A stretch of 64,000 bases of DNA from positions 155,467 through 219,466 of the forward strand of contig CAVOKJ010000001.1 of NCBI GenBank assembly GCA_963696495.1, in the 5' to 3' direction. A program made the position numbers and the translations under genes. Below the pieces are notes generated by a model. It was not told the DNA's origin and did not search any database. It was given only the letters and a program-made list of their open reading frames with translations. Origin of the DNA: an uncultured Acidimicrobiales bacterium. GTDB taxonomy: Bacteria; Actinomycetota; Acidimicrobiia; Acidimicrobiales; RAAP-2. Every line of letters begins with the position of its first letter. Position 1 is the stretch's first letter. This document shows, in pieces, positions 31,649 to 64,000 of the stretch.

Positions 31649-32509
31649 TCAGGCACGGGGTGCGTCGAACCGGTAGCCGACACCGCGGATCGTCGTGATC
31701 AGCTTCGGCGAGGACGGGTCCTCCTCCACGTGGCTGCGCAGCCGCTTGATGTGCACGTCGAGGGTCTTGGTGTCGCCGAAGTAGTCCGATCCCCAGATGC
31801 GGTCGATCAGCACGTCGCGGGTGAGCAGCCGGCCGGCGTTCTCCATCAGGAGGGAGAGCAGCTCGAACTCCTTGCGACGCAGGTGGACGTCCTCACCCCG
31901 GACGAACACCAGGTGCCGGTCGGGATCGATCTGGATCCCCCCGGCCTCGAGCACGTTGCCGTGGTGTTCGACGGCGACGCCACCCCCGTCGGCCGCCCGA
32001 CCGGAGCCGCTCCGCCGATCGACGCCGTCGGGGGCACCTTTGACCGCCTTGGACCCGGCCGCCTCGGTTTCGGCACCGACCGGTGTCCTGCGGAGCACGG
32101 CCCGCATGCGGGCGACGAGCTCGCGGAGCCGGTAGGGCTTGGACACGTAGTCGTCGGCACCCACCTCGAGACCCACCACCGTGTCGATCTCGGTCCCCTT
32201 GGCGGTGACCATGATGATGGGAACCGACGACCGCGCCCGGATCGAGCGGCACACGTCGATGCCGGACAGCCGGGGGAGCATCAGGTCGAGGAGGATGAGG
32301 TCGGGATCGACCTCATCGAAGAGCTTGAGGGCCTGGTTGCCGTCGCGGGCCACGGTGATGTCGAAACCCTCGCGTGACAGGCCGATGACCAGTGCGTCGA
32401 TGAAGGACTCGTCGTCCTCGGCCAGGAGGACCTTGGTGTGCGACACGTCTTCGGGGGGTGACTTCTTGCCCGATCCGTGCTTGGTCCCCGACGCGTGCTT
32501 GGCGCTCAT
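31649..32509 (-). CDS. OmpR-family response regulator (RegX3-like) with an N-terminal extension and an unusually long linker
   Basis: Receiver domain (VLLAEDDES...LLDLMLP...KP) and winged helix (RKEFELLSLL...TLDVHIKRLR...IRGVGYRF). 286 aa. Confidence 0.85.
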   Translation of the reverse strand: MSAKHASGTKHGSGKKSPPEDVSHTKVLLAEDDESFIDALVIGLSREGFDITVARDGNQALKLFDEVDPDLILLDLMLPRLSGIDVCRSIRARSSVPIIMVTAKGTEIDTVVGLEVGADDYVSKPYRLRELVARMRAVLRRTPVGAETEAAGSKAVKGAPDGVDRRSGSGRAADGGGVAVEHHGNVLEAGGIQIDPDRHLVFVRGEDVHLRRKEFELLSLLMENAGRLLTRDVLIDRIWGSDYFGDTKTLDVHIKRLRSHVEEDPSSPKLITTIRGVGYRFDAPRA

Positions 32510-33744
32510 GCCGAATAGACCGGGGGACTGGGGAGGACCAGCGTGAAGGTCGAGCCCTCGCCCTCGCGCGAATCGACCTCGACCCGGCCGTGGTGGTTGC
32601 TGGCCACATGGCGGACGATCGACAGCCCGAGCCCGGTCCCTCCGGTGTCGCGGCTCCGCCCGTGGTCGACGCGGTAGAAGCGCTCGAAGATCCGCTCGAG
32701 GTCGCGGGCGGGGATCCCCACGCCGTTGTCGATCACCGACAGCTGGACCTCGCCGTTCGACTGGCTGCCGGCCACCCGCACGAGGCCGTCCTCGTAGGAG
32801 AAGGTCACGGCGTTCTCGAGGAGGCTGTGGATGGCCGAGACCAGCTGGCGCCGGTCGCCGAGGACGTGGATCGATGGAACGGGCTCATCGAGCTCGATGG
32901 TAATGCGTCGCTGCTCGGCCGCCGACCTGACCCGCTCCACCGCCTCGGCCATCAACAGGTTGATCGAGATCGGCTCCCGGGGTGGCGCCTCCTCCGACTC
33001 GATCCGGCTCAGGTCGAGCAGGTCGTCGATGATCCGGCTGACCCGGAAGGCCTCGGTGTGGATGCGGGAGGCCAGGCGTTGGGCGACGATCTGGTCGGAC
33101 TCGGCGGTCAGGGTCTCGGCCAGCAGGCCGAGGGCGCCGATGGGGGTCTTGAGCTCGTGGCTGACGTTGGCCACGAAATCCCGTCGGATCTCCTCGAGCC
33201 TCCGCCGGTCGGACACGTCCTCGATGATGGCGATCACCCCGAGAGGCCGCCGCCCGTCGTCGATCAGCCTCGTCCGCACGATGAGCGTCTGGCGTGGTGG
33301 GCCGTAGAGGTCGAGCGTCCGCTCGGCGGTCCCGTCCCGCCACGCTCCCTCGAGGAGCTCGGTCACCGCCTGGGCGGCCAGGGCGTCGCCGTGCCGGTTG
33401 TTCATGAGGTCGACGGCCCGGGCGTTCCGGAAGGCCACGTCACCGTTCTCGTCGCACACGATGACGCCCTGGGGCAGGGTGTCGAGGGCCCGGCGGAGCC
33501 GGATGGCATCGGAGCTGGCCTCGGTCACCGCCTCGGCGGCCTCGCCGGTCACCCGCTCGAGGTGGCTGAGGACGGGCTCCACGCCCCCCTCGTCGGGTGG
33601 CTGGACGCCCAGGCGGTTGGACAGGGCGGTCAGCCGTTGCTGCAGGCTCCTGCGCCCGGCCCGACGCCCCAGCCGTGCGGCGATGAACACGGCCAGGACG
33701 GCGACCACGCCCAGCACGATGTACCCGATCACGTACGGCTTCAC
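32506..33744 (-). CDS. Sensor histidine kinase (SenX3-like)
   Basis: N-terminal TM helix, PAS-like segment, H-box FVANVSHELKTP and the G-boxes GTGLGLSIV. 4-nt overlap with the response regulator. Confidence 0.85.
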   Translation of the reverse strand: MKPYVIGYIVLGVVAVLAVFIAARLGRRAGRRSLQQRLTALSNRLGVQPPDEGGVEPVLSHLERVTGEAAEAVTEASSDAIRLRRALDTLPQGVIVCDENGDVAFRNARAVDLMNNRHGDALAAQAVTELLEGAWRDGTAERTLDLYGPPRQTLIVRTRLIDDGRRPLGVIAIIEDVSDRRRLEEIRRDFVANVSHELKTPIGALGLLAETLTAESDQIVAQRLASRIHTEAFRVSRIIDDLLDLSRIESEEAPPREPISINLLMAEAVERVRSAAEQRRITIELDEPVPSIHVLGDRRQLVSAIHSLLENAVTFSYEDGLVRVAGSQSNGEVQLSVIDNGVGIPARDLERIFERFYRVDHGRSRDTGGTGLGLSIVRHVASNHHGRVEVDSREGEGSTFTLVLPSPPVYSA

Positions 33745-33827
33745 CGCCTAAGCATGACAGGCCGCCGGTCGGGTCGGGGCTATCCCCGACCGTGGGGAAG
33801 GAAGAACATCAAATAACATAAAAAGTA

Positions 33828-33856
33828 TTGAAAGTGATCGTCGGACTCCCTACGCT
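33828..33856 (+). promoter_or_regulatory. Sigma-70-like promoter: TTGAAA, 17-nt spacer, TACGCT; predicts a leaderless transcript starting at about ATG 33863
   Basis: Hexamers read directly from the sequence, inside a conspicuous AT-rich patch (AACATCAAATAACATAAAAAGTATTGAAAG). The -10 ends 6 nt before the ATG, and no SD is present. Confidence 0.45.
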
Positions 33857-33862
33857 CGGGGG

Positions 33863-34204
33863 ATGGCCACCCTCCCCGTCCCCCCGTTGCCCGCCACCCT
33901 CCCCGCCCACGTCGTCACCGGGCGCACCGCCGACGTGCAACTCACCCCGGACACCAATTCACTCCCCGGCGGGCAGGTGCTGCAGCACCTCATGAACGGC
34001 CTCGGGGGGTGGGCACTGGCCTTCGCCCTGATCGGGTTGGTCGTCGGCGCGGCCGCCTGGGCGCTGGGCTCCCACGGCCAGAACTACCAGCAGAGCTACG
34101 TCGGCCGGCGGGCGGTGCTGATCTCCGGACTGGCCGCCCTGCTGATCGGGGCCGGCCCGGCCATCATCAACTTCTTCTTCCATGCGGGCCAAGGGGTGAA
34201 CTGA
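33863..34204 (+). CDS. Small two-TM membrane protein, VirB2/TrbC pilin-like (T4SS-like module gene 1)
   Basis: 113 aa with two hydrophobic helices (GWALAFALIGLVVGAAAWAL and AVLISGLAALLIGAGPAIINFFF) forming a hairpin. First gene of the cluster. Confidence 0.5.
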   Translation: MATLPVPPLPATLPAHVVTGRTADVQLTPDTNSLPGGQVLQHLMNGLGGWALAFALIGLVVGAAAWALGSHGQNYQQSYVGRRAVLISGLAALLIGAGPAIINFFFHAGQGVN

Positions 34205-34205
34205 C

Positions 34206-35858
34206 GTGCCCGTGGTGGGACTGCCGGCCATCCCGAGCGTCTCGTGCCCCTCGACCGCCTCCGCGCTGGCCTCGGCCGGCCTCGGTCCCGTGTGCCAGGT
34301 GGCCTCCGGTGCGACGGCGGCGGCCGGATCGGCGGTCTCCCAGGTTGCCGGCCTCGGCATCGACAGCGTGCTCGATGCGCTGGGCGGCTGGGTGTCCGAC
34401 GGGGCCACCTGGCTGCTGACCCAGATCGGCGGCGTGGTCGGCACCACCACCTCGGTCGATCTGTCGGCACCGTGGTTCTCCGCCCACTACGGGACGATGG
34501 CTGCCCTGGCGGCCGTGGTGGTCCTCCCGCTGATGCTCCTCGGCGTCATGCAGGCGGTCTACCGCCAGGACGCCTCGGCGCTCGTCCGGTCCGTGGCCGT
34601 GAACGTCCCGCTGGCCGTGCTCCTCACGGCGGTGGCGGTCAAGCTGGTCGAGCTGGGCCTGGCGCTCACCGACGCCATGAGCGCGGCCGTGGCTGAGGGG
34701 GCCGGCCTCGACGCCGGTCACTTCATGGCCTCGGTCACGCTCGGGCTGTCGGGTGCCGCCACCACCGGTCAATCCGGCGCGCCGGCCTTCATCCTGCTCC
34801 TGGGGGCGTTGGCGGTGGTGCTCGGCGCGGTCATGGTGTGGGTGGAGCTCCTGATCCGTTCGGCGGCCGTCTATGTGGCCGTCCTCTTCCTGCCCCTGGC
34901 GCTGGCCAGCCTGGCCTGGCCGGCCATCTCGCACTGGTGCCGCCGTCTGGTGGACACCCTGGTCGCCCTCATCCTCGGGAAGTTCGTGATCGTCTCGGTG
35001 CTCAGCCTGGCCGCCGGGGCACTGGCCGGCTCGGGGGGTGCCGGCGGGGGAGGGTTCACCGCGGTGCTCGGCGGAGCGGCGCTCCTCATGCTGTCGGCGT
35101 TCGCCCCCTGGGCCCTGTTCCGGCTGATCCCCTTCCTCGAGGCGGGCGCCGTCGGCCATCTGGAAGGGGTGAGCCAGCGCACGAGGCACACCGTCTCCGC
35201 TCCCGTGCGGGGACTGGCCCAGGTGGCGATGCGGGCCGCCGCCGGCTCGATGGCCGGTTCCCTCGCCGGCCTGGCCGGTGGGTCGGGCGGGCCGGGTGGG
35301 GTCGGGTCGGGCCCGGAGCCCCCCGGCCCTTCGGGAGACCCGGGAGACCCGCGAGACCCCGGACAACCCCCGGACAGGGGACCGTCCTCGGCGGAGTCCA
35401 CCGGGGTGGGGACGACCGAACCTCCCGGGCACGGCATCCCCATGCACCCGGCGCATCCCGCCGCCACCGCCACCGCCCACCGGCTGATGGCCGAGTTGGA
35501 GGAGGCGGGCATGATCGAGCCGGGCTCCCGCCTCGGCCCGGGCCCGGGAGCCGTCGGCGGGACCGGGTCCGGCGGAGGCGAGACCGCCGGCGGAGGCGCG
35601 GCCACCGGCGGAGGGGCAGTGTCCGGAGGGAGGGCGGCACCCGGCGCGTCACGCTCACCGGTCGGCGCCGTGGGCACCCCGCCGCTCCGGCCACTCCCCG
35701 TCCAGACCGGCACGGTCAACCCCGACTCGATCGGGCGGGACCATCTCGGCGTCAGGCTGGTGGCCGCACCCCAACCGCCGGCGCACCGGCCGCCCACCGG
35801 GGGTCCGGACGGAGACGGACGGGGTGGCGCTCACCCGGGCGGGACGCCCGGTGGCTGA
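34206..35858 (+). CDS. Polytopic membrane protein, TrbL/VirB6-like, with a ~195-aa Gly/Pro-rich tail (gene 2)
   Basis: Five to six TM helices at about aa 95-310, then a low-complexity tail. GTG start 2 nt after the gene 1 stop. Confidence 0.6.
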   Translation: MPVVGLPAIPSVSCPSTASALASAGLGPVCQVASGATAAAGSAVSQVAGLGIDSVLDALGGWVSDGATWLLTQIGGVVGTTTSVDLSAPWFSAHYGTMAALAAVVVLPLMLLGVMQAVYRQDASALVRSVAVNVPLAVLLTAVAVKLVELGLALTDAMSAAVAEGAGLDAGHFMASVTLGLSGAATTGQSGAPAFILLLGALAVVLGAVMVWVELLIRSAAVYVAVLFLPLALASLAWPAISHWCRRLVDTLVALILGKFVIVSVLSLAAGALAGSGGAGGGGFTAVLGGAALLMLSAFAPWALFRLIPFLEAGAVGHLEGVSQRTRHTVSAPVRGLAQVAMRAAAGSMAGSLAGLAGGSGGPGGVGSGPEPPGPSGDPGDPRDPGQPPDRGPSSAESTGVGTTEPPGHGIPMHPAHPAATATAHRLMAELEEAGMIEPGSRLGPGPGAVGGTGSGGGETAGGGAATGGGAVSGGRAAPGASRSPVGAVGTPPLRPLPVQTGTVNPDSIGRDHLGVRLVAAPQPPAHRPPTGGPDGDGRGGAHPGGTPGG

Positions 35859-37428
35859 TGGCGACGGCCACGAGCGCGTGCACTACCGGTTCTCCCCGCT
35901 GGAGCGCCGGGGGGTCATCGCCGGATGGCGCGGCGGACAGATCGCCTCGGTGGCGGCCGGACTGGTCATCGGGGTGCTCGCCCTCCGCTCCCGTCCGAGC
36001 GTGGGAGGCGTGCTGGTGGCCGTGGCCTGCGTGGCCGGGGGCGTGGCCCTGGCCTTCTGGCCGATCCGGGGACGCACCGGCGAGCAGTGGCTCCCACTCG
36101 TGGTGCGCCGGGTCGTGGCGCTGGGGACCGGCGGTCGCCGGCAGCTGGCTCCGGGGCCCGGCTCCGGCCATGTGGCCAGCCTGGGTGCCGACGGCGGGGA
36201 GGCCGAGGTGTCGGTCACCGGACCCGCTGCGGCGGGTGGTCGTGGCATCGGCCGGCGGACCACCTTCGACGGGGTGGAGATCGTCGGGGTCCCGTCCGTG
36301 CCCGACCGGTGGGCGGCCGACATGGGGATGGTCGTGGACCGGTCGGCCCGCACCGCCGCCGCCGTCCTGGCCGTCCGGGGTCACAGCTTCGCGTTGCTCG
36401 GTCACCGCCAGCAGGACTCGACCATCGCCGGGTGGGCCAGGGTGCTCTCGTCCATGGCCCGGGAAGGCTCCGACGTGCACCGCCTCCAGTGGATCGAGTC
36501 GTGCCTCCCCGACGATGGCGGTGCCGTGCGCCGCCACCGCGCCGCCCATGCGGTCCTCGATGAGGAGTCCGCGGCCGGCCGGTCCTACCTGACGCTCCTG
36601 GACGAGTCCGCGCCGGCCACCCGCCGGCATCGCGTGCTGCTCGTCGTCTCCATCCACACCGGACGTTCCTCCCGGGCCATCCGCGTCGCCGGTGGGGGGA
36701 CCGTGGGGACGGGGGTCGTCCTCGGTCGCGAGATCCTGTCGCTGCAGCGTTCCCTCGGGGCCACCGACGTCACGATGGACGGTGTCCTCGGGCCCGGCGC
36801 CCTGGTCCGGGTGATCAGAGAGGCGTCCTCTCCGACGGTCGACACCGAACGGGATGGCGACCCGCTCGGTGCGGGGCCGTCGGGCGAGCCGGACACGGAG
36901 CCCGACCCCGCGCCGGGGTGGCCGTGGCCGATGGCCGTCGAGCCCCAGTGGGACGCCATCCGGACCGATGCCACCTGGCACGCCACCTACTGGATCGCCG
37001 AGTGGCCGAGGGTCGAGGTCACCCCCGACTTCCTCGGGCCGCTGCTCTTCCTGCCCCTGCGACGGACCATCACGATGACCATGGAACCGGTCAGCCCCAG
37101 CCGCGCCGCCCGCCAGGTGGCCCAGGCCCGGACGGCCGACATCGCCGACGGCGAGCTGCGCCGCCGGAACGGCTTCCTCACCACCGCCCGCCACACCCGT
37201 GAGAAGGAGAGCGTCGAGGAGCGCGACGTCGAGCTGTCCGACGGGCACGCCCAGTACCGGTTCTCCGGGTACGTGACGGTGACCGCCGAATCGAGGGGCG
37301 AGCTCGCCGCCGCCTGTGTGGCCGTCGAACAGGCGGCCGGCCAGTCCCGCGTGGAGCTCAGGCTCCTCTACGGCGAGCAGGACGTGGGCTTCACCTGCTC
37401 GCTCCCGCTCGGTCGGGGCCTCTCGTGA
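35824..37428 (+). CDS. VirB3-like TM hairpin fused to a VirB4 N-terminal-like domain (resembles what I recall as the SCO6880 family); start 35824 or 35851 (gene 3)
   Basis: HYRFSPLERRGVIAGWRGGQ followed by two TM helices. Later WHATYWIAEWPRVEVTPDFLGPLL is typical of the non-ATPase half of VirB4/TraC. No P-loop. Confidence 0.6.
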   Translation: MALTRAGRPVADGDGHERVHYRFSPLERRGVIAGWRGGQIASVAAGLVIGVLALRSRPSVGGVLVAVACVAGGVALAFWPIRGRTGEQWLPLVVRRVVALGTGGRRQLAPGPGSGHVASLGADGGEAEVSVTGPAAAGGRGIGRRTTFDGVEIVGVPSVPDRWAADMGMVVDRSARTAAAVLAVRGHSFALLGHRQQDSTIAGWARVLSSMAREGSDVHRLQWIESCLPDDGGAVRRHRAAHAVLDEESAAGRSYLTLLDESAPATRRHRVLLVVSIHTGRSSRAIRVAGGGTVGTGVVLGREILSLQRSLGATDVTMDGVLGPGALVRVIREASSPTVDTERDGDPLGAGPSGEPDTEPDPAPGWPWPMAVEPQWDAIRTDATWHATYWIAEWPRVEVTPDFLGPLLFLPLRRTITMTMEPVSPSRAARQVAQARTADIADGELRRRNGFLTTARHTREKESVEERDVELSDGHAQYRFSGYVTVTAESRGELAAACVAVEQAAGQSRVELRLLYGEQDVGFTCSLPLGRGLS

Positions 37429-38828
37429 CGGCGACCGGACCGCGGGTCCCGGCCCATGTGGCCACCACCCGGCACTTGTGTGCCGCCTATCCGCTGGTGA
37501 CCGAGGCCGGACTCGGGCACGAGGGGGTACTCGTCGGCCGGGACGTGCTCGGCGGGTCCTTCGTCTACGACCCGTTCGTGCTCTACCGGCAGGGGGTGGT
37601 CACCAATCCCAACATGGTGGTGATCGGTCAGATCGGCCGCGGGAAGAGCTCTTTCGTCAAGTCCTACCTGTGGCGCCAGGCGGTGTTCGGACGCCGAGCC
37701 TGGGTGGTCGACCCGAAAGGGGAGTACGGGCCCTTGGCCCGGGCGTGGGGCGTCACGCCGGTGGCCCTGCGACCGGGGGGTTCCGTCCGGCTCAACCCGC
37801 TCGACACCGACGGCGGAGCCGGCGGCGGGGTCGATCCGGGCACGGACCCCAGCGGGGGCGACGGCACCGATGGGGCTGGGAACGGCACCGACGGCATCCG
37901 GGCCGACGGCGGCCGGGGCGACGCGGTCCGCCGGAGCCGTATCTCGCTCACCTCGTCACTGGCCATCGCCTGCCTCGGCCGGGACCTGCTCCCCCGCGAG
38001 CGGGCGGCCGTCGACGCCGCCGTCACCGAGGCCACGGCACGGTCACGGGTGGCGCGGTTGGACGCCCCCACGCTGCCCCAGGTCGTCGACGCCCTCCTCG
38101 ATCCGGGCATGGATGCGGCCCTGGCCATCCGGACCTCGAGGTCGGTGCTGGTCGAGGACGGTCGTGACGTGGCGCTCGAGCTCCGGCGGTTGGTCCACGG
38201 GGACCTGTGCGGCATGTTCGACGGGCCGACCACACCCGGCCTGCGCCTCGACGGGCCGCTGGTCGTCCTGGACCTCTCGGCCGTCTACCACTCATCCGCC
38301 CTCGGCGTGCTCATGGCCTGCGCGGCGGCCTGGCTCCAGAGCGCCGTCCGGGCCCGGCACCGGAACCGGATCATCGTGGTCGTGGACGAGGCGTGGGCGA
38401 TCCTCTCCAACCTCGGGGTGGCCCGGTGGTTGCAGACCTCGTGGAAGCTCTCCCGTGCCCTCGGCGTGTCCAACATCGCCGTACTGCACCGGCTCTCGGA
38501 TCTGCGGTCGGTGGCCGGCGAGGGCTCCGAGCAGGTCAACCTGGCCGAGGGCCTGCTGGCCGACTCGGAGACCCGGGTGGTCTACGCCCAGTCGCCCGGC
38601 GAGGTCGAGCGCACCGGTGAGCTCCTCGGCCTGACCGGGACGGAGGCCGAGCTGGTCACCCAACTGCGCCGTGGGATGGCCCTGTGGAAGGTGGGTCGAC
38701 GCTCGTTCCTCGTCGAGCACCGACTGGCCTCCGAGGAGCAGTGGCTGACCGACACCGACCAGGCCATGACCGGACGGAACCCGGACGGGGGACGTGACGC
38801 CGGCCCGGGCCCCGTCCCCGGGCGTTGA
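37425..38828 (+). CDS. VirB4-like P-loop ATPase domain protein (gene 4)
   Basis: GTGA overlap with gene 3. Walker A GQIGRGKS (37626-37649), Walker B IIVVVDEAWAIL and a downstream RHR/LSD region as in VirB4/TrbE-type ATPases. Confidence 0.75.
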   Translation: MTATGPRVPAHVATTRHLCAAYPLVTEAGLGHEGVLVGRDVLGGSFVYDPFVLYRQGVVTNPNMVVIGQIGRGKSSFVKSYLWRQAVFGRRAWVVDPKGEYGPLARAWGVTPVALRPGGSVRLNPLDTDGGAGGGVDPGTDPSGGDGTDGAGNGTDGIRADGGRGDAVRRSRISLTSSLAIACLGRDLLPRERAAVDAAVTEATARSRVARLDAPTLPQVVDALLDPGMDAALAIRTSRSVLVEDGRDVALELRRLVHGDLCGMFDGPTTPGLRLDGPLVVLDLSAVYHSSALGVLMACAAAWLQSAVRARHRNRIIVVVDEAWAILSNLGVARWLQTSWKLSRALGVSNIAVLHRLSDLRSVAGEGSEQVNLAEGLLADSETRVVYAQSPGEVERTGELLGLTGTEAELVTQLRRGMALWKVGRRSFLVEHRLASEEQWLTDTDQAMTGRNPDGGRDAGPGPVPGR

Positions 38829-38832
38829 GGAC

Positions 38833-40410
38833 ATGACGGTCGCCACGCTGTCCGCCACGGTCGTCGGGCTGTCCGCATTCGCCGGGGCGGCACTGACCGG
38901 GACCGGACGCCGGCGATGGGGCCGCCCCGGTCGGTCCCGGGGTGACGGGCCGACCCACCCCCGACGGCGACCATCCCGTCCGGACCGCCGCCGTCGGCCG
39001 GGTGCCGGTGGGCCGGGGGACCGTCGACGGACGGCGCAGTGGGCCAGCCCCGGCCAGCTCCGGCACCTCCTGGTGGGACCGAGGTGGGCCCTCCGGTCCG
39101 GGAGTCCCCCGGCCCCGAGCGGGCGACTGGTGCTCGGGTGGGCGGGCCGCCAGCTCGTCGTCGCCGAGCGTGCGCAGTCGGTGATCGTCTTCGGGCCCAC
39201 CCAGTCGTTCAAGACCTCCGGATTCGCCATCCCGGCCATTCTCGAGTGGGAGGGTCCGCTCCTGGCGTCGAGCGTCAAGACCGATCTCGTCGACCACACC
39301 ATCGACCACCGGCGGGCCTGCGGCTCGGTGACGTGCTTCGACCCCTCGGGCTCCACGGACCTCGACGGGTCGACGTGGTCGCCGTTGCGGGCCTCTTGCA
39401 CCTGGCCCGGGGCCCGGAGGGCCGCAGCCGGACTCACCGAGGTGGCCAAGTCCTCGGTCGGCACGATGAGCGACGGGGACTTCTGGTACGCCACGGCCGC
39501 CAGGATGCTCGCCCCGCTGTTCTTCGCCGCCGCCTTCGGGCAGCGGACCATGGACGACGTCGTCCGCTGGGTCGACACCGGCGAGGAGCGGGAGGTCCTC
39601 GACCTGCTGGATGCGGCCGGCATACCCGAGGCGAGCAACGCCGCCCTGTCCACCTTCGGCAAGGAGGAGCGCCAGCGAAGCTCGATCTACACCACGGTCG
39701 AGACCATCCTCGAACCGTTCGCCGGCAGCACCGGCTCCCGGGACCCGGATACCGGTGCGGGGACGGTGGACCCGGCGAGGCTGCTGGCCGGATCCAACAC
39801 GCTGTACCTGTGCGCCCCCGCCCACGGCCAACGGCGGTTGGCCCCGTTGTTCGTCTCGGTGGTCCGAGAGGTGGTCGAGCACGTCTACGAGCAGGTGGCG
39901 AGCTCCGGGAAGCCCCTCGACCCTCCGTTGCTGCTGGTGCTGGACGAGGCGGCCAACATCGCTCCGCTCACCGATCTCGACGCGCTGGCGGCGACGGCGG
40001 CCGGTCATGGCGTGCAGCTGGTCACGGTCTGGCACGACCTCTCCCAGATCAACGCCCGCTACGGGCCGCGGGCCACGACGGTGGTGAACAACCATCGGTC
40101 CAAGCTCTTCCTGTCGGGGATCTCCGACCCGGCGACGCTCGACTACGCCAGCCACCTCATCGGCGACGAGGAACTCCACGTTCCGGTGACGACCCGCGGC
40201 GGCCACGGCGGGCTGAGCACCACCTTCTCGCCGTCCACCCGGAGGCTCGCTCCCCCTGACGAGATCCGTCGCATCCCACCGGGCGAGGGCGTGCTCGTCT
40301 ACGGGGACCTGCCGCCCGCACGTCTGCGGCTGCGGCCGTGGTTCGACGATCCCCGTTTGTCCGCCATGACTGCGGCCCATGCACCGCCCGACGTGGTGAG
40401 CCCGGAGTGA
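38833..40410 (+). CDS. VirD4/TraG-type coupling protein (gene 5)
   Basis: N-terminal TM helix and an Arg/Pro-rich linker. Then VFGPTQSFKTSG, FDPSG, LLLVLDEAANI and GVQLVTVWHDLSQI...NHRSKLFLSGI, the TraG/VirD4 NTPase pattern. Confidence 0.8.
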   Translation: MTVATLSATVVGLSAFAGAALTGTGRRRWGRPGRSRGDGPTHPRRRPSRPDRRRRPGAGGPGDRRRTAQWASPGQLRHLLVGPRWALRSGSPPAPSGRLVLGWAGRQLVVAERAQSVIVFGPTQSFKTSGFAIPAILEWEGPLLASSVKTDLVDHTIDHRRACGSVTCFDPSGSTDLDGSTWSPLRASCTWPGARRAAAGLTEVAKSSVGTMSDGDFWYATAARMLAPLFFAAAFGQRTMDDVVRWVDTGEEREVLDLLDAAGIPEASNAALSTFGKEERQRSSIYTTVETILEPFAGSTGSRDPDTGAGTVDPARLLAGSNTLYLCAPAHGQRRLAPLFVSVVREVVEHVYEQVASSGKPLDPPLLLVLDEAANIAPLTDLDALAATAAGHGVQLVTVWHDLSQINARYGPRATTVVNNHRSKLFLSGISDPATLDYASHLIGDEELHVPVTTRGGHGGLSTTFSPSTRRLAPPDEIRRIPPGEGVLVYGDLPPARLRLRPWFDDPRLSAMTAAHAPPDVVSPE

Positions 40411-40474
40411 CGAGAGTGTCCGGACGATCGGCCCCACCCGGGAGCGCACGTCGGTGAGGAGCGCTCGTGGGAGG

Positions 40475-40807
40475 TCAGCCGCCGGTGGTGCCCTTCCTCA
40501 GCTGGTTCTCCGCGGCCTTCAGCTCGGACTCGGCGGCGCTCAGGTTCTTCTTGGCCTGCTCGATCGAGGCGAGCAGCTGCGACGACAGCGTCGTACAGGG
40601 CGAGGCCGAGTCACCGTTGGGTGGGCACGCACTGGCGGTGGCGCTGACCTGGGCCAGCTGGGTCTGGTCGATCCGGACCCGAGCCTGCGCGTTGTCCACG
40701 GCGACCTGCTCGTCGGCCTTGGTCACCTTGGGCGTCGAGCTGCCCGACGAACAGCCACCGGCCAGGAGCACCACGGACATCGCCACGGCCGCCAGGACCC
40801 TCCGCAT
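40475..40807 (-). CDS. Small coiled-coil lipoprotein
   Basis: MRRVLAAVAMSVVLLAGGCSSG (lipobox LAGGC). Convergent on the VirD4-like gene. Confidence 0.65.
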   Translation of the reverse strand: MRRVLAAVAMSVVLLAGGCSSGSSTPKVTKADEQVAVDNAQARVRIDQTQLAQVSATASACPPNGDSASPCTTLSSQLLASIEQAKKNLSAAESELKAAENQLRKGTTGG

Positions 40808-40934
40808 GGCGCGGAGCGTAGGCGCCTGCCCCGATGCCTTCAAGGATTCCCGGTGGCCACCAGCCGGCGCCGCCGCCACCCGTCCGGCCGGCTCCGACAA
40901 TTCCCCGGGCCTGACGAGTCGGTACCATCCTCTG

Positions 40935-42203
40935 GTGACCCCACCCGTCCCAGCTCCGCAGTCGGACCTCAGCCCGGACCGCCCGGTCTTCGATCCGTTC
41001 GACCCCTCGTGGGCCAGTGACCCCTTCCCGCTCTATGCGGACCTTCGTGAGCGGGCGCCGATCCACCGCAACCATCTGGGCTTCTGGGTGATCGCCCGGC
41101 ACGAGGACTGCCTGGCGGTGCTGCGGGACCGACGGGCCAGCTCGGACAGCCTGAACGTCGCCGTCGAGCGCATGCCCGAGGGCTTCCGGACCCCGGTCGC
41201 CGAGGACGATCCCGTCGCCGTGGCCATGGTCGAGCTGCGGCCGTTCCTCTTCCGGGACCCCCCGGACCACACCCGTCTGCGGGGCCTCGTCTCGAAGGCG
41301 TTCACCCCCAAGGTCGTCGAGTCACTGCGCGAACGGACCCAGCAGACCGTGGACGAGCTCCTCGACGCCGCCCTGGAGGCCGACCGGGTCGATCTGCTCG
41401 AGGGTTTCGCCTATCCCCTGCCGGTCCGGGTCATCTGCGACCTCCTCGGTGTGCCCGTCGAGGACCAGGACCGGTTCAAGGAGTGGTCCAACGCCCTGGC
41501 CCGCGGGCTCGATCCGGACTTCCTGCTCACCCAGGAGACCATCGACGCCCGCGGTGAGGCGGTGGTCCAGTTCGCCCAGTACTTCTTCGAGCTGCTGGCC
41601 GAGCGCCGCCGGGCCCCGGGTGAGGATCTCTTGAGCCGGCTGGTCCAGGCCGAGGACGGGGGGACGGTGCTGAGCGAGCCGGAGCTGCTCTCGACCTGCA
41701 TCCTGTTGTTGGTGGCCGGCCATGAGACCACGGTCAACCTGATCAGCGGGGGCACGCACGCCCTCCTGCGCCACCCCGACCAGTTCGAGCGGTTCCGCAC
41801 GGACCCGACGGTGACCCGGAGCGGCGTCGAGGAGATGCTGCGCTACGTGTCGCCGGTGCAGCTGACCGGCCGGGCGCTCGTCGAGGACTGCGAGTTCGGC
41901 GGTGTCCGGTTCGAGGCCGGCGACTTCGCCATGCTGCTGCTCGCCTCGGGCAACCGGGACGCCGCGCAGTTCGAGGACCCGGACCGCTTCGACATCACCC
42001 GGACGCCCAACAACCACCTCGGCTTCGGGTTCGGGATCCACCACTGCCTCGGGGCGCCCTTGGCGCGGATGGAGGCGCAGGTGGCGCTGAGCACACTGGT
42101 GCGCCGCGCCCCCCGGCTGGCACTGACCGTCGACGACGTGGTGTACAAGCACAACGTCGTGCTGCGGGGCATGGAGTCGCTGCCGGTGGCCATGCGGGGC
42201 TGA
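40935..42203 (+). CDS. Cytochrome P450
   Basis: I-helix LLLVAGHETT, EXXR (EEMLRY) and the heme loop FGFGIHHCLGAPLA. GTG 40935 is the proposed start. Confidence 0.9.
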   Translation: MTPPVPAPQSDLSPDRPVFDPFDPSWASDPFPLYADLRERAPIHRNHLGFWVIARHEDCLAVLRDRRASSDSLNVAVERMPEGFRTPVAEDDPVAVAMVELRPFLFRDPPDHTRLRGLVSKAFTPKVVESLRERTQQTVDELLDAALEADRVDLLEGFAYPLPVRVICDLLGVPVEDQDRFKEWSNALARGLDPDFLLTQETIDARGEAVVQFAQYFFELLAERRRAPGEDLLSRLVQAEDGGTVLSEPELLSTCILLLVAGHETTVNLISGGTHALLRHPDQFERFRTDPTVTRSGVEEMLRYVSPVQLTGRALVEDCEFGGVRFEAGDFAMLLLASGNRDAAQFEDPDRFDITRTPNNHLGFGFGIHHCLGAPLARMEAQVALSTLVRRAPRLALTVDDVVYKHNVVLRGMESLPVAMRG

Positions 42204-45520: not shown

Positions 45521-45530
45521 GGCACCACGG

Positions 45531-45571
45531 CCGGTGCGGCCGGTGCGGCCGGTGCGGCCGGTGCGGCCGGT
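45531..45571. repeat. Tandem 9-bp repeat (CCGGTGCGG) x4.5
   Basis: Read directly from the sequence. It lies in the 60-bp convergent gap between the ppgK-like and CHAD genes. Confidence 0.9.
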
Positions 45572-45580
45572 TCTGACCGG

Positions 45581-58887: not shown

Positions 58888-58964
58888 GCGCTCGTAGCTC
58901 AACGGACTAGAGCATCTGACTACGGATCAGAAGGTTGGGGGTTCGAATCCCTCCGAGCGCACCA
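58888..58964 (+). tRNA. tRNA-Arg (anticodon ACG), CCA encoded
   Basis: GCGCTCGTAGCTCAACGGACTAGAGCATCTGACTACGGATCAGAAGGTTGGGGGTTCGAATCCCTCCGAGCGCACCA. Cloverleaf with anticodon loop CUACGGA. Confidence 0.95.
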
Positions 58965-59817
58965 AAAGTCCAGGTCCCTGAGCCCGAATGCGAGGCCGCT
59001 AGGCCGGTTGTCAACGGTTGCACTCTCCTGTTGGGCACTTGCATGTCTTGGGGTAACCATCGCGCTGGCTGAACCCACCCCTGAGGCACCTACGAGAGCG
59101 ACTAATCCGACGGACCCACTACTGAGAGTCTCTTCACCTTTGACTTGATCGACACGACCGCCCTCCCCCTGGTCAATGGATGGGAATCGACGCGCATTCA
59201 TCCGCCGGAACCAATCTGCTCTTCGGCCTTCCCGGTCGTGGCGTAAATGCGCTTACCAGGGAAACGTTCGGCGGTGGCTGGGCCGCCAACAGAGGCATGT
59301 TCACGAGTCCTCGGCCGCCGATCTGACCAAAGCGACTTGCCAGGGGCAGGAAAGTCGGGATAGCACCCGGCACCCGGCACGTGGCTGCTATTCCCGCCTC
59401 ACGGGCTCGATCCCGCATGGTGAGGCCACCATGACGGTCGCCCAGTCGCCTCACCTCCTCCGCTCATCTCCGATCAGTTTCGGGGAGCGGAAGTGTTCGA
59501 TATATGGCGTCACAGTTCTGGCCTATCTTGCTCTTCGTGTTGGGTCGCCCCGATGGAAAGACAGCGCGGGGAGTGGAGCCGATCCTTCGGGCTTGCCAAG
59601 GCAGGCCGTCCACAGCTGAACCCAGGTCCAGTACCGCCGAACGCCTAGAAGCAAACGAGGCTCGAGCTGGTTGGGGGCCTTAGCTACGCCAGCTGAGAAC
59701 GGTCACCATCTAGTTGAGGGGGGCGATACTCATCACGCAGGACTGATGCCGTGCTGGACGTGTTGGTGTCCTCCGCACGTTTCCTACCTCGACAGCTCTG
59801 CATTCGAAGACCTCGGC

Positions 59818-60795
59818 ATGATCATGTGGGTGGTGGGGGTAACGTGGGGCGCAGTGCCGGGGCCAGTTAACGATGCGGTGCCATCCGTCAACGGACCCCA
59901 CAACGTCGCCGTCATCGCCCACCGGAAGAAATCGCTCGGGGAAGGGCTCCCTGAGCTTCGCCGGGCGCTCGCCGTCCACGGCGTTCCCGATCCCACCTGG
60001 TACGAGATCTCGAAGAGCAAGGAGGCCACGACACTCGCCGAGAAGGCGGTCGCCGGTGGGGTGAGCCTGCTGATCATCTGGGGAGGGGATGGCACAATTC
60101 AGCGCTGTCTCGACGCGGTCACCGGCCGGGACATCGCTGTCGCCGTCGTACCGGCCGGCACAGCGAACCTTTTCGCTGCCAATCTGGGTATCCCGGATGA
60201 TGTGGGTACTGCAGTACGGATCGCAATCTACGGAGACCGGCGCCCGCTCGACGTCGGGGTGCTAAACGGCAAGCGCTTCGCGGTGATGGCCGGCGTCGGT
60301 TTCGACGCGCACATGATGCTGATCGCCGATGGCGGGCTGAAGGAGCGGTGGGGTCAGCTCGCCTATGTCTGGGCGGCTATCCGGGCGACTCGCATTGCAT
60401 CCCAGAGGGTGACCATTGCTGTCGACGGCTCTACTTGGTTCGCTGGCCAGGCCGCCGGAATACTGCTCGGGCAGATGGGCACCCTGACCAGTGGACTTGT
60501 GGCGTTCCCCAATGCGGTGCCTGACGACGGTCAGCTCGAGGTGGCAGTGATCACGGCTGACACCTGGACTCACTGGCTCAGGGTTCTCTACCGGCTGATC
60601 TCAGGGCATCCTGAGCGCTCACCGCTGGCCAGGACTACCCGGGGCAGCACCGTTGACATCGCCCTCGACCAGGCGACCCCCTACGAACTCGACGGTAGCC
60701 CGAGGAAGGCGAAGAAGAGGCTGAGAGCGTCCATCGAGCCGGCCGCCATCACAGTGTGCGTGGCCAATTCGGCTGTCGCCAGTTGGCGTCCCTGA
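59818..60795 (+). CDS. Diacylglycerol/lipid kinase catalytic-domain protein (YegS/LCB5 family)
   Basis: VAVIAHRKK...LIIWGGDGTIQRCLDAV...VVPAGTANLFAANLGIP (DAGK_cat GGDG motif). ATG 59818 is preferred over the ORF start at 59671. Confidence 0.8.
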   Translation: MIMWVVGVTWGAVPGPVNDAVPSVNGPHNVAVIAHRKKSLGEGLPELRRALAVHGVPDPTWYEISKSKEATTLAEKAVAGGVSLLIIWGGDGTIQRCLDAVTGRDIAVAVVPAGTANLFAANLGIPDDVGTAVRIAIYGDRRPLDVGVLNGKRFAVMAGVGFDAHMMLIADGGLKERWGQLAYVWAAIRATRIASQRVTIAVDGSTWFAGQAAGILLGQMGTLTSGLVAFPNAVPDDGQLEVAVITADTWTHWLRVLYRLISGHPERSPLARTTRGSTVDIALDQATPYELDGSPRKAKKRLRASIEPAAITVCVANSAVASWRP

Positions 60796-60830
60796 CGATC
60801 GGGCGGACCGGGACCACTCCATCGGTTGAG

Positions 60831-60857
60831 GTGCCTCAGCCTCACAGGCTGAGGCAC
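60831..60857 (+). terminator. Hairpin GTGCCTCAGCC-tcaca-GGCTGAGGCAC after the lipid kinase gene
   Basis: Perfect 11-bp stem 36 nt after the stop, followed by TTG. Confidence 0.5.
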
Positions 60858-61074
60858 TTGCGCCTACCGGCGTCGAGTCACCTCAAAGTGCCGGTCGGTC
60901 GCAGTTCCCGTCGGCAAGTAAGCGTCAACAGATGACGCGTTCTAGCCGGCGATCGGGGGCGCAACGCTTGGCCAAACGTGACGAAGGGTCGAGGCGCGCG
61001 AGTGCGATACCCTCACGAGGAAAACGGCTCCGCCAAACAGGTGGATGCGCAACCGGTCAGGCTTGGAGGCATCC

Positions 61075-61281
61075 ATGGGACAGAAGACGATTCTTACTCG
61101 ACTTGGCTCGATGAGCACGACTGAGAAGCGAGAGCTTTATCTCAAGTTCGCCGAGAGCGAACTCCAGGCGTCGATGCGGCGGTCATGGGCAGGTGGCCAG
61201 ACGGCGCATGCTGCTCGGGCGAATGCTGCTGCGACGTTGGCCCTGGCATTCACTCAGGAGGTACGAGCGCCAGCCCGCTGA
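61075..61281 (+). CDS. Hypothetical small protein (68 aa)
   Basis: GGAGG lies 6 nt upstream of ATG 61075. No family recognised. Confidence 0.35.
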   Translation: MGQKTILTRLGSMSTTEKRELYLKFAESELQASMRRSWAGGQTAHAARANAAATLALAFTQEVRAPAR

Positions 61282-61527
61282 GCCGCCATCGGCCGGCCGA
61301 TAACCGACCCGCTCCCGGTTGGTATGGGGCTGTCGTGGCGGCCAACCGGAGGGGCAAGGGAGAGATGGACCGGCGTGTTACCGTTCCGATGAACGAATTC
61401 AATCGATAGGAGGTGAGCCCTGTGAATGCAGCATCGAAAGTGGGCGCTCTCGCCCGTCGGGGATCGAGCGACTGAGATAGTCGGCCCCAGGGAGCGTCCA
61501 TCATGCATCTCGTGAAAGGCGACTTCC

Positions 61528-62529
61528 TTGAATACATCACCTCTTCCGGCTTCGTTTTCTCCTTCCACTAGGACCTTCCGCTGGCCACGGTCTGAGCAGG
61601 ATCAATCCCAGATCGACGGCACGGAGCAGAACCGCGCTGAACACAGGCGCGCCTTGGTCCTTCACGGTGGTGGGTCCGCGGGGAATGCGTGGGAGATCGG
61701 CGTCATCGCCGGCCTGTCCAACGCAGGTGTGGACGTAACCGAAGCTGATCTGATCATCGGGACGTCGGCTGGAGCGACGGCGACCGCCCAGGTCACAAGC
61801 GCTTCTCCGACCGAACTGCTTACTGCCATCCTCGATGCTGCATCCCCGCACCAGGGCCTTCCGGACGGTCCGAGTGGCGGGCAGCCTCCCGTTGGACCCG
61901 TCATCGACCACATGGAGAGAACGAACCGAATCATCGCCGCCGCTAAGGACGCCGCAGACATGCGTCGAAGGATGGGTGCGGCTGCGCTCGAAATGGATGC
62001 AGCCTCAGATGGATCCGGACAAGCGCGGTGGCGTGCCACCGTCGCTGCCAGGCTTCCCAGTAACCGATGGCCTGAACGAGCGATCCTCATCACGGCGGTC
62101 GACGCGCGCACGGGTGAGCCGGTTGTCTTCGATCGCCACAGCGGGGTCGATCTAGTTGATGCCGTCGCCTCCAGTACTGCCAACGGCTTTGGTGTCCCTC
62201 CTTTCGGCATTGGCAACGACCGATTCATCGACGGCGGATACCGGCGCAACGAGAATGCCGATCTGGCCGTCGGATGTGAGCGGGTACTCGTCCTGTCGCC
62301 GTTCGGCGGCAGGACGCGGCATCCGGAAGAGTGGCACATGCAGCTTGCCGCTCAAGTCGATGAGCTCCGCTCCAGCGGCAGCACCGTTGAGACGGTCTTT
62401 CCCGATAGCAAATCTCGCCAGGCGTTCGGTTCCAACATGATGGACCCCTCGAGGCGCCGACCCTCCGCCTTGACCGGTTACGAGCAGGGGATGGCTCACG
62501 GCGAGCGGCTCACCGAGTTCTGGCGCTGA
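61528..62529 (+). CDS. Patatin-like phospholipase (start problematic)
   Basis: LVLHGGGSAGNAWEIG (oxyanion GGGxxG), IIGTSAGA (GxSxG) and IDGGY (catalytic Asp). The only in-frame starts are TTG 61528 and TTG 61654. Confidence 0.75.
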   Translation: MNTSPLPASFSPSTRTFRWPRSEQDQSQIDGTEQNRAEHRRALVLHGGGSAGNAWEIGVIAGLSNAGVDVTEADLIIGTSAGATATAQVTSASPTELLTAILDAASPHQGLPDGPSGGQPPVGPVIDHMERTNRIIAAAKDAADMRRRMGAAALEMDAASDGSGQARWRATVAARLPSNRWPERAILITAVDARTGEPVVFDRHSGVDLVDAVASSTANGFGVPPFGIGNDRFIDGGYRRNENADLAVGCERVLVLSPFGGRTRHPEEWHMQLAAQVDELRSSGSTVETVFPDSKSRQAFGSNMMDPSRRRPSALTGYEQGMAHGERLTEFWR

Positions 62530-62858
62530 CGGAGGCAACATTGCCCAAAAGTGCTGTTGAGAGCACAGCCGATTAGGGATACCCACGTGCGGCACTCTGT
62601 TCTCGTCCGGATCTCGGCACGACGGCCTCGAAGTGGTCAATCGGGAGCGCGAGACATAGCTCAACTTCGGGAGAGTGAGCTCCTCGCCCTGGATCACGAC
62701 CTCAGCGGCTGAGGACCTGCAGGGCTCGGAGCAATCAGCCTCATTGGCCGATGTCCATCGCGGGGGCAAGGCAGCAAAACGAAGCTGCTCCTTATCGTCG
62801 AAATGTTTGAATGTAGCGCCGGTTGGACGAGTGCTCTAGCAGCCGACCCGGTGGTGCC

Positions 62859-63362
62859 TCAGGCCGGTGGGCGCTGCGTTGCTCCTCGAGCAGCGGTCTC
62901 GATTGCCAGGATGTCTATCTTCGTCATCGTCATCATCGCGTCCATGGCCTGCTTCGCAGCGGCCTCGTCCGAACTGTTCATCGCCTCCAGCAATGCGCGC
63001 GGTGTGATCTGCCAGGAGAAGCCCCACCGGTCTCTACACCAACCGCACGCGCTCTCCTCCCCACCGTTGTCGACGATCGCGTTCCAATATCGGTCCGTCT
63101 CGGCCTGGTCGTCGGTCAGCACCATGAGGCTGACGGCCTCGTTTGGGACAAAGTTCGGTCCACCGTTGAGACCCACGAAGGATCGGCCGAGCACTGTGAA
63201 TTCGACCGTAAGCTCGTTCCGAGCCGATCCGCCGGGGTAGTCCGATGGAGCTATATGGATTGCGTCAACGTGGCTGTCCGGAAAAGTCATCGCATAGAAG
63301 TCTGCTGCCTTGCGGGCCTCACCGTGATCGAACCACAAGCATGTTGTCAGTTTGTCGGACAT
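62859..63362 (-). CDS. VOC/glyoxalase-fold protein of the PhnB / 3-demethylubiquinone-9 3-methyltransferase-domain type
   Basis: ATG 63362 is preceded by GGAGGA. TTCLWFDHGEARKAADFYAMTFPDS...GGPNFVPNEAVSLMV...CGWCRDRWGFSWQI is characteristic. Confidence 0.8.
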   Translation of the reverse strand: MSDKLTTCLWFDHGEARKAADFYAMTFPDSHVDAIHIAPSDYPGGSARNELTVEFTVLGRSFVGLNGGPNFVPNEAVSLMVLTDDQAETDRYWNAIVDNGGEESACGWCRDRWGFSWQITPRALLEAMNSSDEAAAKQAMDAMMTMTKIDILAIETAARGATQRPPA

Positions 63363-63507
63363 CCACATCCTCCACCCTCTTGACGACGACGACGGCACTA
63401 CACCTATCGACAGGGCTAGCGTAGGGTCAGAATTGAAGTGTCCCGGGGTGTGGGGTGTCGAATGACGCCGCACCACGTGATCTCGACGTAGGCGATGGGG
63501 AGCGATT

Positions 63508-64000
63508 GTGAATGACGCCGGACGAAAAAGTGCGCTGATCCGGCGGCCAAGAGTGGCCGTATTGGTCGTGGCGATGACCGTAATCGTGGCCGCTTTCGGG
63601 GTCTTCCTGACGAGACAGGCAGCCCAGGCTGCGGCGCCCGAGCGGATCGATGGCCAGCCGGTCACGACCCTCAACCTGACCATGCCCCACGCCTACAAGC
63701 CGGTGTTCACCAACGGCAGCACCGACGACTACCACTGCATCCTGTTGAACCCCCACGTGACCAAGAACTCCTACGTCGTGGCATCGGAGTTCCACCCCGG
63801 TTCGGGGCCGTCCAGCGTCGAGGTGCACCACGCCATCCTTTTCCTCGTCCCGCCGGACGAGGTGGCGACGGCGGAGGCAAACAATCCGGGTGACAAGGGC
63901 TGGAGCTGCTTCGGCGAGTCCCCCATCGATGGGAACAGTTTGGCCGGACTGGGGAGCTTCCCGTGGCTCAGCGCCTGGGCTCCCGGCGCCGGGGTCGACA
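63508..64000 (+). CDS. Membrane-anchored/secreted copper type II monooxygenase-like protein (PHM/DBH N-domain-like), 3' end outside the window
   Basis: My own translation, since this open frame is not in the supplied track: VNDAGRKSALIRRPRVAVLVVAMTVIVAAFGVFL (signal anchor), then DDYHCILLNPHV...VEVHHAILFLV, which resembles the CuH-site region (Y-x-C...HH-x-L-F) of peptidylglycine monooxygenase. Confidence 0.55.
   Translation, partial: MNDAGRKSALIRRPRVAVLVVAMTVIVAAFGVFLTRQAAQAAAPERIDGQPVTTLNLTMPHAYKPVFTNGSTDDYHCILLNPHVTKNSYVVASEFHPGSGPSSVEVHHAILFLVPPDEVATAEANNPGDKGWSCFGESPIDGNSLAGLGSFPWLSAWAPGAGVD

Follow-up and report, generated by a model that had tools for sequence, protein, structure and literature searches.

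In Streptomyces coelicolor, SCO4126-4131 (cmdABCDEF) is a co-transcribed chromosomal cluster related to type IV secretion systems (T4SSs), described by Xie, Zeng, and Qin in 2009 (PMC2782261). CmdB is a membrane-associated VirB4-like ATPase, and CmdC and CmdD resemble SCO6880 and SCO6881; mutants with cmd deletions are late in aerial growth, show disturbed sporulation and chromosome segregation, and make more actinorhodin, with plasmid transfer unaffected, and the homologues from SLP2 are required for conjugal transfer (PMC2782261). A paralogous S. coelicolor cluster around SCO6878-SCO6881 is a further close system (SLP2.19-23 is grouped here with the plasmid modules discussed below), and a conserved chromosomal VirB4-like gene is known from Frankia (PMC2266912; for context, 10.64898/2026.07.10.737749). 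We found no later mechanistic work on cmd-type systems in the literature, and a 2025 review of T4SSs is silent on actinobacterial chromosomal modules and treats Gram-positive functions other than DNA transfer as a long-standing question (PMC12857230). Here we describe a five-gene T4SS-like module in a 64,000-nucleotide stretch of DNA (the window) from an uncultured Acidimicrobiales bacterium of the RAAP-2 lineage (GenBank assembly GCA_963696495.1, contig CAVOKJ010000001.1, positions 155,467 to 219,466). The module is fixed in the chromosome beside a PhoR/SenX3-like two-component system across the Acidimicrobiales, and all five of its genes are under purifying selection. The module and its genes are as follows.

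33863-40410, plus strand: five-gene module of co-directional, translationally coupled open reading frames (ORFs), g1 to g5
33863-34204, plus strand: g1, 113 residues with two transmembrane (TM) helices; DUF6112, distantly VirB2/TrbC-like
34206-35858, plus strand: g2, 550 residues, polytopic; TrbL/VirB6-like, SCO6881-like
35824-37428, plus strand: g3 (longest ORF), SCO6880 family; N-terminal TM hairpin, variable linker, and VirB4 N-terminal domain
37425-38828, plus strand: g4, stand-alone C-terminal ATPase domain of VirB4; Walker A GQIGRGKSS, Walker B VVVDEAW
38830-40410, plus strand: g5, VirD4/TraG-type; one N-terminal TM anchor, Arg/Pro-rich linker, and nucleotide-binding domain

Like cmd, the module is a chromosomal, co-directional, lineage-conserved cluster, a likeness drawn from the published description and from family links rather than from alignment. 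Its parts recall a VirB4-like ATPase of about 430-470 residues (CmdB), a SCO6880-family protein (CmdC), and a SCO6881-like polytopic protein (CmdD): g4 is an ATPase of the same size class that consists of the C-terminal domain only, and g3 belongs to SCO6880_fam, but g2 scores far below the cut-off of SCO6881_fam. The two systems differ in gene number, with six genes in cmd and five in the module, and in genomic context; the extra gene for a protein of ~250 residues found in clusters of the six-gene type, and probably included in cmd, is missing from the module. We know of no sporulation in the Acidimicrobiales, so the cmd phenotypes in aerial hyphae, sporulation, and actinorhodin are not directly transferable. 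The statement in the initial annotation that such modules are not functionally characterized does not hold, given the cmd deletion phenotypes, the role of the SLP2 homologues in conjugation (PMC2782261), and the existing NCBIfam models for SCO6880 and SCO6881.

When one genome from each GTDB species was scanned with a SCO6880-family alignment, at least 582 stretches matched, the best 80 of which were analyzed. All 80 come from Acidimicrobiales/Acidimicrobiaceae metagenome-assembled genomes (MAGs) that are species representatives, and their g3 proteins are 46-91% identical to that of the window. As far as the contigs reach, gene order by tblastn is the same in every one of the 80 loci: ctaB, the permease and ATPase of an ATP-binding cassette (ABC) transporter, serS, a response regulator, and a kinase, followed divergently by g1-g2-g3-g4-g5; after g5 there is a variable stretch and then cytochrome P450, oxidoreductase, amidase, and ROK genes. 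Two fully annotated contigs have this gene order as well, and the synteny of the module is still present at 42% and 37% g3 identity. The syntenic module is also found on closed chromosomes, among them OY969919, OY969604, and OY969923. When metagenome contigs were searched from the kinase side, g1 was found divergent to the kinase, with further genes up to the contig end, in 11 of 11 loci having a kinase identity of ≥60% and upstream sequence; kinases below 60% had no adjoining module. The kinase is itself the most conserved gene of the region (93-98% identity compared to 86-94% for serS; ratio of nonsynonymous to synonymous substitution rates [dN/dS], 0.03-0.09; loci L006-L085). The position beside serS and the kinase genes, which the initial annotation had proposed to survey, is thus conserved wherever a contig reaches, and the term “orphan” used there for the module has to be given up, as it is a clade-wide core locus linked to the kinase.

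By the Nei-Gojobori method, with the window compared to four orthologous loci, dN/dS is 0.09-0.29 over g1 to g5, with 0.09-0.21 for g1 and 0.12-0.17 for g4, close to the values of serS (0.14-0.20) and the ABC ATPase (0.17-0.20). Internal stops occur in single module genes of three MAG loci (g4 of L040 and g5 of L034 and L054) and are probably assembly errors. The module is clearly a core locus across these Acidimicrobiales soil bacteria and not a mobile element, and we hold it to be very probably domesticated. Fixed synteny in 80 species and purifying selection bear out the initial annotation here, which had preferred a domesticated machine to an ICE (integrative and conjugative element).

Genes were called by third-position GC because the window is 71% G+C, and neighboring genes of the module are separated by gaps or overlaps of only a few bases: a gap of 1 nucleotide between g1 and g2, a GTGA overlap between g3 and g4, and a gap of 1 nucleotide between g4 and g5. 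The g2/g3 junction is unsettled. The start of g3 is uncertain, either GTG 35824 or GTG 35878, and the two genes overlap only with the former; the public gene call for g3 also starts elsewhere than the longest ORF. At 35856-35880 the junction differs by 1 nucleotide from that of a near-identical contig, ERZ25039528:contig_15380 (L092, positions 2000-2025), in which g3 can be read, in frame, from an ATG that overlaps the g2 stop (TGATG), as a protein of 523 residues. The equivalent ATG of the window (35858) is out of the g3 frame, and only the two GTG codons can start g3; the difference is a true polymorphism or else an indel introduced in assembly. Between the window and this contig there is also a difference of 3 codons in the tail of g2.

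The first annotation had recognized five co-directional, coupled T4SS-like genes, and matches to Pfam, NCBIfam, profiles, and folds confirm this, with assignments of unequal strength. Those of g3 and g4 to the two parts of VirB4 are strong. The profile search proposed for g3 placed it in SCO6880_fam of NCBIfam at 261.9 bits, with a cut-off of 60, and its AlphaFold model (predicted local distance difference test [pLDDT], 84; predicted template modeling score [pTM], 0.85) consists of a membrane hairpin and, after it, a soluble domain. All 14 of the best PDB matches of this model in Foldseek are R388 TrwK/VirB4 (E values of 9e-10 to 1e-7 over ~400 columns); a profile search of g3 against PDB sequences gave nothing useful. 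The N-terminal two-helix TM hairpin may be VirB3/PrgI/EccE-like: no VirB3 profile is matched directly, EccE of Pfam is matched by some g3 orthologues, and the PrgI family is the annotation given to some plasmid homologues. The g4 profile matches the VirB4 C-terminal domain of PDB entry 4ag5 over the full domain (E value of 7e-21), and both Walker motifs are invariant in 63 orthologues. A natural fusion exists in a metagenomic protein of 928 residues (P0216), in which residues 8-506 correspond to g3 and residues 515-922 to g4 (51% identity); since this one protein aligns to both, g3 and g4 together amount to a single protein of the VirB3-VirB4 type. In a distant relative (L087, 8847-11672), a VirB4-like gene of 941 codons carries a LAGLIDADG intein-like insertion.

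The VirD4 assignment of g5 is likewise strong. Three Pfam families are matched above their cut-offs (T4SS-DNA_transf at 114 bits, TraG-D_C at 74 bits, and TrwB_AAD_bind at 41 bits), and the profile also matches TrwB and Cag5. The public call for g5 (426 residues) begins ~300 nucleotides downstream and leaves out the N-terminal TM anchor (ATxVGLSAFAGAAL); because this anchor is kept in 51 of 54 orthologues, we place the start at 38830, 1 nucleotide past the g4 stop. The Walker A motif of g5 is atypical, GPTQSFKT at residues 122-129 (39193-39216), with F in place of the glycine before the catalytic lysine. Across 49 g5 orthologues this second glycine position holds R (20 sequences), H (16), G (9), F (2), or Y (1), the glycine being kept in the basal orthologues L057, L060, and L076 and in the coupling protein of an Iamia plasmid. 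The Walker A lysine and threonine and the Walker B motif are invariant among the orthologues.

For the two small and polytopic membrane proteins the earlier assignments stand with less strength, that of g2 as TrbL/VirB6-like being moderate and that of g1 as pilin-like being weak. The g1 protein matches Pfam DUF6112 (E value of 7.5e-9) and has a highly conserved TM core. TrbC/VirB2-pilin matches below threshold were obtained for 12 of the 24 g1 sequences aligned, which comprise 19 chromosomal orthologues and 5 relatives from plasmids or of other types; the best E value was 9.7e-5. Hydropathy and conservation delimit a conserved polytopic core in g2 at about residues 60-330, and from ~35256 onward the C-terminal tail is Pro/Gly-rich, unconserved, and probably disordered. 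In SCO6881_fam, whose cut-off is 325 bits, the protein scores 52.6 bits (E value of 3.5e-14). Pfam gives no match for the window copy, and PF19590 TrbL_3 is carried by about 24 of 120 close orthologues as well as by the orthologue in L089. A profile search against PDB sequences gave nothing useful for g2, and the AlphaFold model of its membrane core is of low confidence (pLDDT, 55; pTM, 0.37).

The module lies among genes of ordinary chromosomal functions. Upstream are a Clp-family ATPase, purine biosynthesis genes, ctaA and ctaB, an ABC transporter, serS, and the kinase and response regulator; downstream are a P450, a luciferase-like oxidoreductase, an amidase, a ROK protein, and lipid-metabolism genes. 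Pfam scans covered 40 ORFs, which make up most of the coding sequence of the window, with small ORFs and the stretches at ~9.9-13.7, 15.3-16.4, and 19.2-20.8 kb lying outside them. None of these 40 ORFs has a relaxase, integrase, replication, partition, or wall-hydrolase domain, nor is there a VirB1-like hydrolase or a VirB8-like protein among them, in agreement with the initial annotation, which had reported DNA-processing, integration, and hydrolase genes to be missing. No direct repeats (att) bracket the module, a repeat search around it having returned only imperfect matches at chance level, and the two closest tRNAs lie at distances of 9 kb and 18 kb. Of the features that mark an ICE (integrase, relaxase, att repeats, a tRNA-type insertion site, and patchy distribution), none was found for the module in the scanned parts of the window and the 80 loci. 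The GC content (0.739 for the module compared to 0.714 for the window) and codon usage are native, as had been claimed from composition.

Related modules do occur on plasmids. SCO6880-family proteins are encoded by 52 plasmids in PLSDB (39 from Streptomyces, 4 from Arthrobacter, 2 from Iamia, and others), all of them <40% identical. On plasmid unnamed2 of Iamia sp. SCSIO 61187, genes for a DD-carboxypeptidase, an AAA ATPase, a DUF6112 protein, a hypothetical protein, a “T4SS protein,” a SCO6880 protein, an ATPase, a helix-turn-helix protein, and a type IV coupling protein (T4CP) follow one another, with a MobF relaxase further on. Streptomyces plasmid pSP01 (MOBF, typed as conjugative) has the matching core order together with NlpC/P60 and lytic transglycosylase genes, and a MOBF plasmid of Arthrobacter alpinus has the corresponding order with a CHAP hydrolase and no annotated ATPase in its gene table. 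The module thus shares with MOBF plasmids the order DUF6112-(hypothetical)-TrbL-like-SCO6880-ATPase-T4CP, including the splitting of VirB4 over two genes. Unlike the module, the plasmids also encode a MOBF relaxase, a peptidoglycan hydrolase (VanY in Iamia), and a protein of ~250-320 residues, and the Iamia coupling protein has a canonical GK[ST] Walker A motif, unlike g5.

A tblastn search with the plasmid relaxase, five kinds of hydrolase, the proteins of ~250-320 residues, and ParA/AAA gave 0 matches in the window and in 81 loci (±10 kb), whereas the four shared components gave matches in 54-78 loci in the same search. Two further chromosomal or metagenomic types in the Acidimicrobiia have the extra gene for ~250 residues together with a hydrolase, VanY or M23. 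In a neighbor-joining tree of g3 homologues, calculated with no support values, the syntenic copies group together in a single clade that excludes the plasmid and other types. Because the plasmid gene order is kept, the accessory parts were not found, and the syntenic copies form one clade, the module would be most simply explained as a reduced derivative of the conjugative archetype with a single origin. Minimal Gram-positive T4SSs (Prg of pCF10, Con of ICEBs1, and 89K of Streptococcus suis) consist of VirB1, VirB3, VirB4, VirB6, VirB8, and VirD4. The module has in common with them the equivalents of VirB4 and VirD4, putative ones of VirB3 and VirB6, and a monoderm host; it differs in that no VirB1-like hydrolase or VirB8-like protein was found, VirB4 is encoded by two genes, and the module is not on a mobile element.

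The region between the kinase gene and g1 is AT-rich within a genome of 71% GC and, together with the two-component genes, contains the following features.

31649-32509, minus strand: response regulator, OmpR/PhoB family (Pfam and NCBIfam)
32506-33747, minus strand: PhoR/SenX3-like kinase; one TM helix, PAS, HisKA, and HATPase domains
33807-33833, plus strand: three direct repeats at 10-nucleotide spacing, CATCAAA-taa-CATAAAA-agt-ATTGAAA, the last overlapping the -35 hexamer
33828-33862, plus strand: predicted module promoter; -35 hexamer TTGAAA at 33828-33833, 17-nucleotide spacer, -10 hexamer TACGCT at 33851-33856, and 6 nucleotides to the ATG

This promoter was recognized only by comparing orthologous intergenic regions; a generic strict scan of 33600-41100 for sigma-70 sites and terminators gave no site. 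The pattern TTGNNA-N17-TAnnnT-N6-8-ATG is present in 49 of 74 orthologous loci (0 expected from shuffles), and a stricter pattern that allowed spacers of 15-19 nucleotides matched 23 loci with a spacer of exactly 17 in every one. As the predicted -10 hexamer lies only 6-8 nucleotides before the ATG, a leaderless g1 mRNA starting at 33863 is implied by the sequence. The direct repeats occur once in the window, with 0 expected by chance. With a weight matrix built from 49 loci, their motif, in 3-5 phased copies, is found only in the kinase-g1 intergenic region when the window and the 80 genome loci are scanned. Directly upstream of the kinase start there is also a conserved block of 16 nucleotides, CTAAGCATGACAGGCC (33748-33763).

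Phased direct repeats overlapping the -35 hexamer serve as binding sites of OmpR/PhoB-family regulators, and the repeats here are a candidate site for a regulator of this family. In Mycobacterium tuberculosis, three imperfect direct repeats (GGTGCcaactGGTGA) at ~10-bp spacing are bound by RegX3, which activates secretion by ESX-5 under phosphate starvation (10.1101/400960). A system of the PhoR/SenX3 type is thus linked to a specialized secretion machine in both cases, but ESX-5 is a type VII secretion system and the module is T4SS-like, and the repeats there are GGTGA/GGTGC compared to CATGAAA here.

The initial annotation had drawn the module from 33828 to 40807. The first of these positions is the start of the -35 hexamer and not of a gene, and the second lies ~400 nucleotides beyond the g5 stop (40410), within an unrelated ORF on the other strand.

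40475-40900, minus strand: lipoprotein-like ORF (MRRVLAAVAMSVVLLAGGC...), third-position GC of 0.88, between g5 and the P450 gene

A tblastn search with this ORF gave no homologue in the 80 related genome loci, and it has no Pfam or NCBIfam match. As no related locus has a counterpart, we rejected it as a possible sixth component of the module; it is either spurious or specific to this strain. Further downstream, a perfect 9-nucleotide tandem repeat, CGGCCGGTG, occurs five times at 45528-45572 between genes of the ROK family and for a CHAD-domain protein. At the far end of the window (58888-64000), a tRNA-Arg(ACG) gene at 58888-58964 is followed by ~5 kb at 63% GC, compared to 71-72% elsewhere, that encodes a DAGK/YegS-like kinase, a patatin-like phospholipase, and a PhnB-like protein. 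This stretch may be a genomic island; no integrase was seen in it up to the end of the window.

On balance, we favor the reading that the module derives from an actinobacterial conjugative T4SS, is vertically inherited, fixed in position, and reduced, and serves its host as a translocase. The core that is kept comprises a putative VirB2-like/DUF6112 protein, a putative VirB6/TrbL-like channel protein, the VirB3-hairpin-VirB4 protein split over g3 and g4, and the VirD4 coupling ATPase. The products of g1 to g5 would assemble as an ATP-driven translocase in the cytoplasmic membrane, where the coupling protein would select a host-encoded macromolecule, more likely a protein than relaxase-bound DNA, to be moved out of the cytoplasm. 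Such a machine would need neither a relaxase nor a dedicated wall-crossing apparatus, and by analogy with cmd its role would lie in the physiology of its own cell and not in self-transfer. Transcription would probably be controlled by the adjacent response regulator acting at the phased repeats. We infer the non-conjugative character from the missing parts, and regard non-conjugative export as conceivable, though short of probable.

Several points weigh against this reading. A relaxase, a hydrolase, a VirB8-like protein, or an oriT (origin of transfer) could lie elsewhere, as the search covered the scanned parts of the window and the 81 loci. The coupling protein, classically tied to relaxase-DNA substrates, is strongly conserved, and the ATPase activity of g5 may be altered because the second Walker A glycine is replaced. 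The kinase/regulator pair reaches no NCBIfam equivalog cut-off, and its equation with SenX3-RegX3 is not secure; with the RegX3 site of M. tuberculosis the repeats have no more than a TGA core in common. For these two reasons, control of the module by the adjacent regulator, drawn from adjacency and from conservation of the motif, and phosphate as the signal are hypotheses only. The repeats could also be a curved-DNA or phased A-tract UP element or an autoregulatory site of the kinase operon. A more elaborate form of the same idea, in which an ancient, order-wide domestication has produced, in free-living Gram-positive bacteria, a relaxase-independent, non-conjugative T4SS that serves its host under dedicated two-component control and that exports a protein or another macromolecule on a signal such as phosphate limitation, its coupling P-loop having drifted, seems to us doubtful as a whole.

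The retained coupling protein, with its TraG-D_C domain and conserved Walker B motif, would also fit a working conjugative machine that acts in trans, with relaxase, oriT, and wall hydrolases encoded elsewhere and with the DNA of the chromosome or of an integrative and mobilizable element as its cargo. Plasmid homologues of the same family accompany MOBF relaxases, and those of SLP2 are required for conjugal transfer (PMC2782261). We nonetheless think such a machine unlikely, given that a relaxase, a hydrolase, or a protein of ~250 residues was found neither within ±10 kb at the 81 loci nor in the window as far as scanned, that plasmid transfer was unchanged by cmd deletion (PMC2782261), and that a fixed position and co-inheritance with a sensor kinase over a deep clade are unusual for transfer. 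Less probable again is a T4SS-derived machine for export or import of extracellular DNA under nutrient (phosphate) limitation, comparable in its outcome to the gonococcal genetic island (GGI) of Neisseria or ComB of Helicobacter. The adjoining PhoR/SenX3-like system may control the module, VirD4 is related by established knowledge to the FtsK-type DNA translocases, and cmd mutants have defects in chromosome segregation (PMC2782261), all of which are consistent with DNA as the substrate. It is equally established, however, that GGI DNA secretion needs a relaxase and that uptake of the ComB type proceeds without VirD4 (see also PMC12857230). ComB-type systems consist of VirB2-4 and VirB6-10 with ComEC and have no VirD4, whereas the VirD4 of the module is conserved and no ComEC-like gene was found in its neighborhood in the annotated contigs. 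The conserved neighborhood has no DNA-processing or nuclease genes either, and control by phosphate is itself hypothetical.

That the module is a functionless, decaying remnant of an integrated conjugative element is close to refuted. Such decay would account for the several parts of the plasmid archetype that were not found and for the internal stops in g4 of L040 and g5 of L034 and L054, though these may be MAG assembly errors. It is at odds with five intact genes at dN/dS of 0.09-0.29, with invariant ATPase motifs, an identical location in 80 species, and a conserved promoter, and also with native GC content and codon usage and the lack of att repeats or of an integrase in the parts of the window that were scanned.

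Nearly all known functions of Gram-positive T4SSs are in DNA transfer, and this locus shows cleanly, over a whole clade, a T4SS core that is no longer mobile and yet is under strong selection. “Conjugal transfer” labels on such genes in Acidimicrobiales MAGs do not signal a mobile element. The Streptomyces relative cmd has had phenotypes since 2009 and no mechanism; the minimal list of five genes, the conserved promoter with its candidate regulator site, and the co-inherited kinase are handles for experiments. The module is a reduced, regulator-linked form of this known and mechanistically unexplained actinobacterial T4SS-like system.

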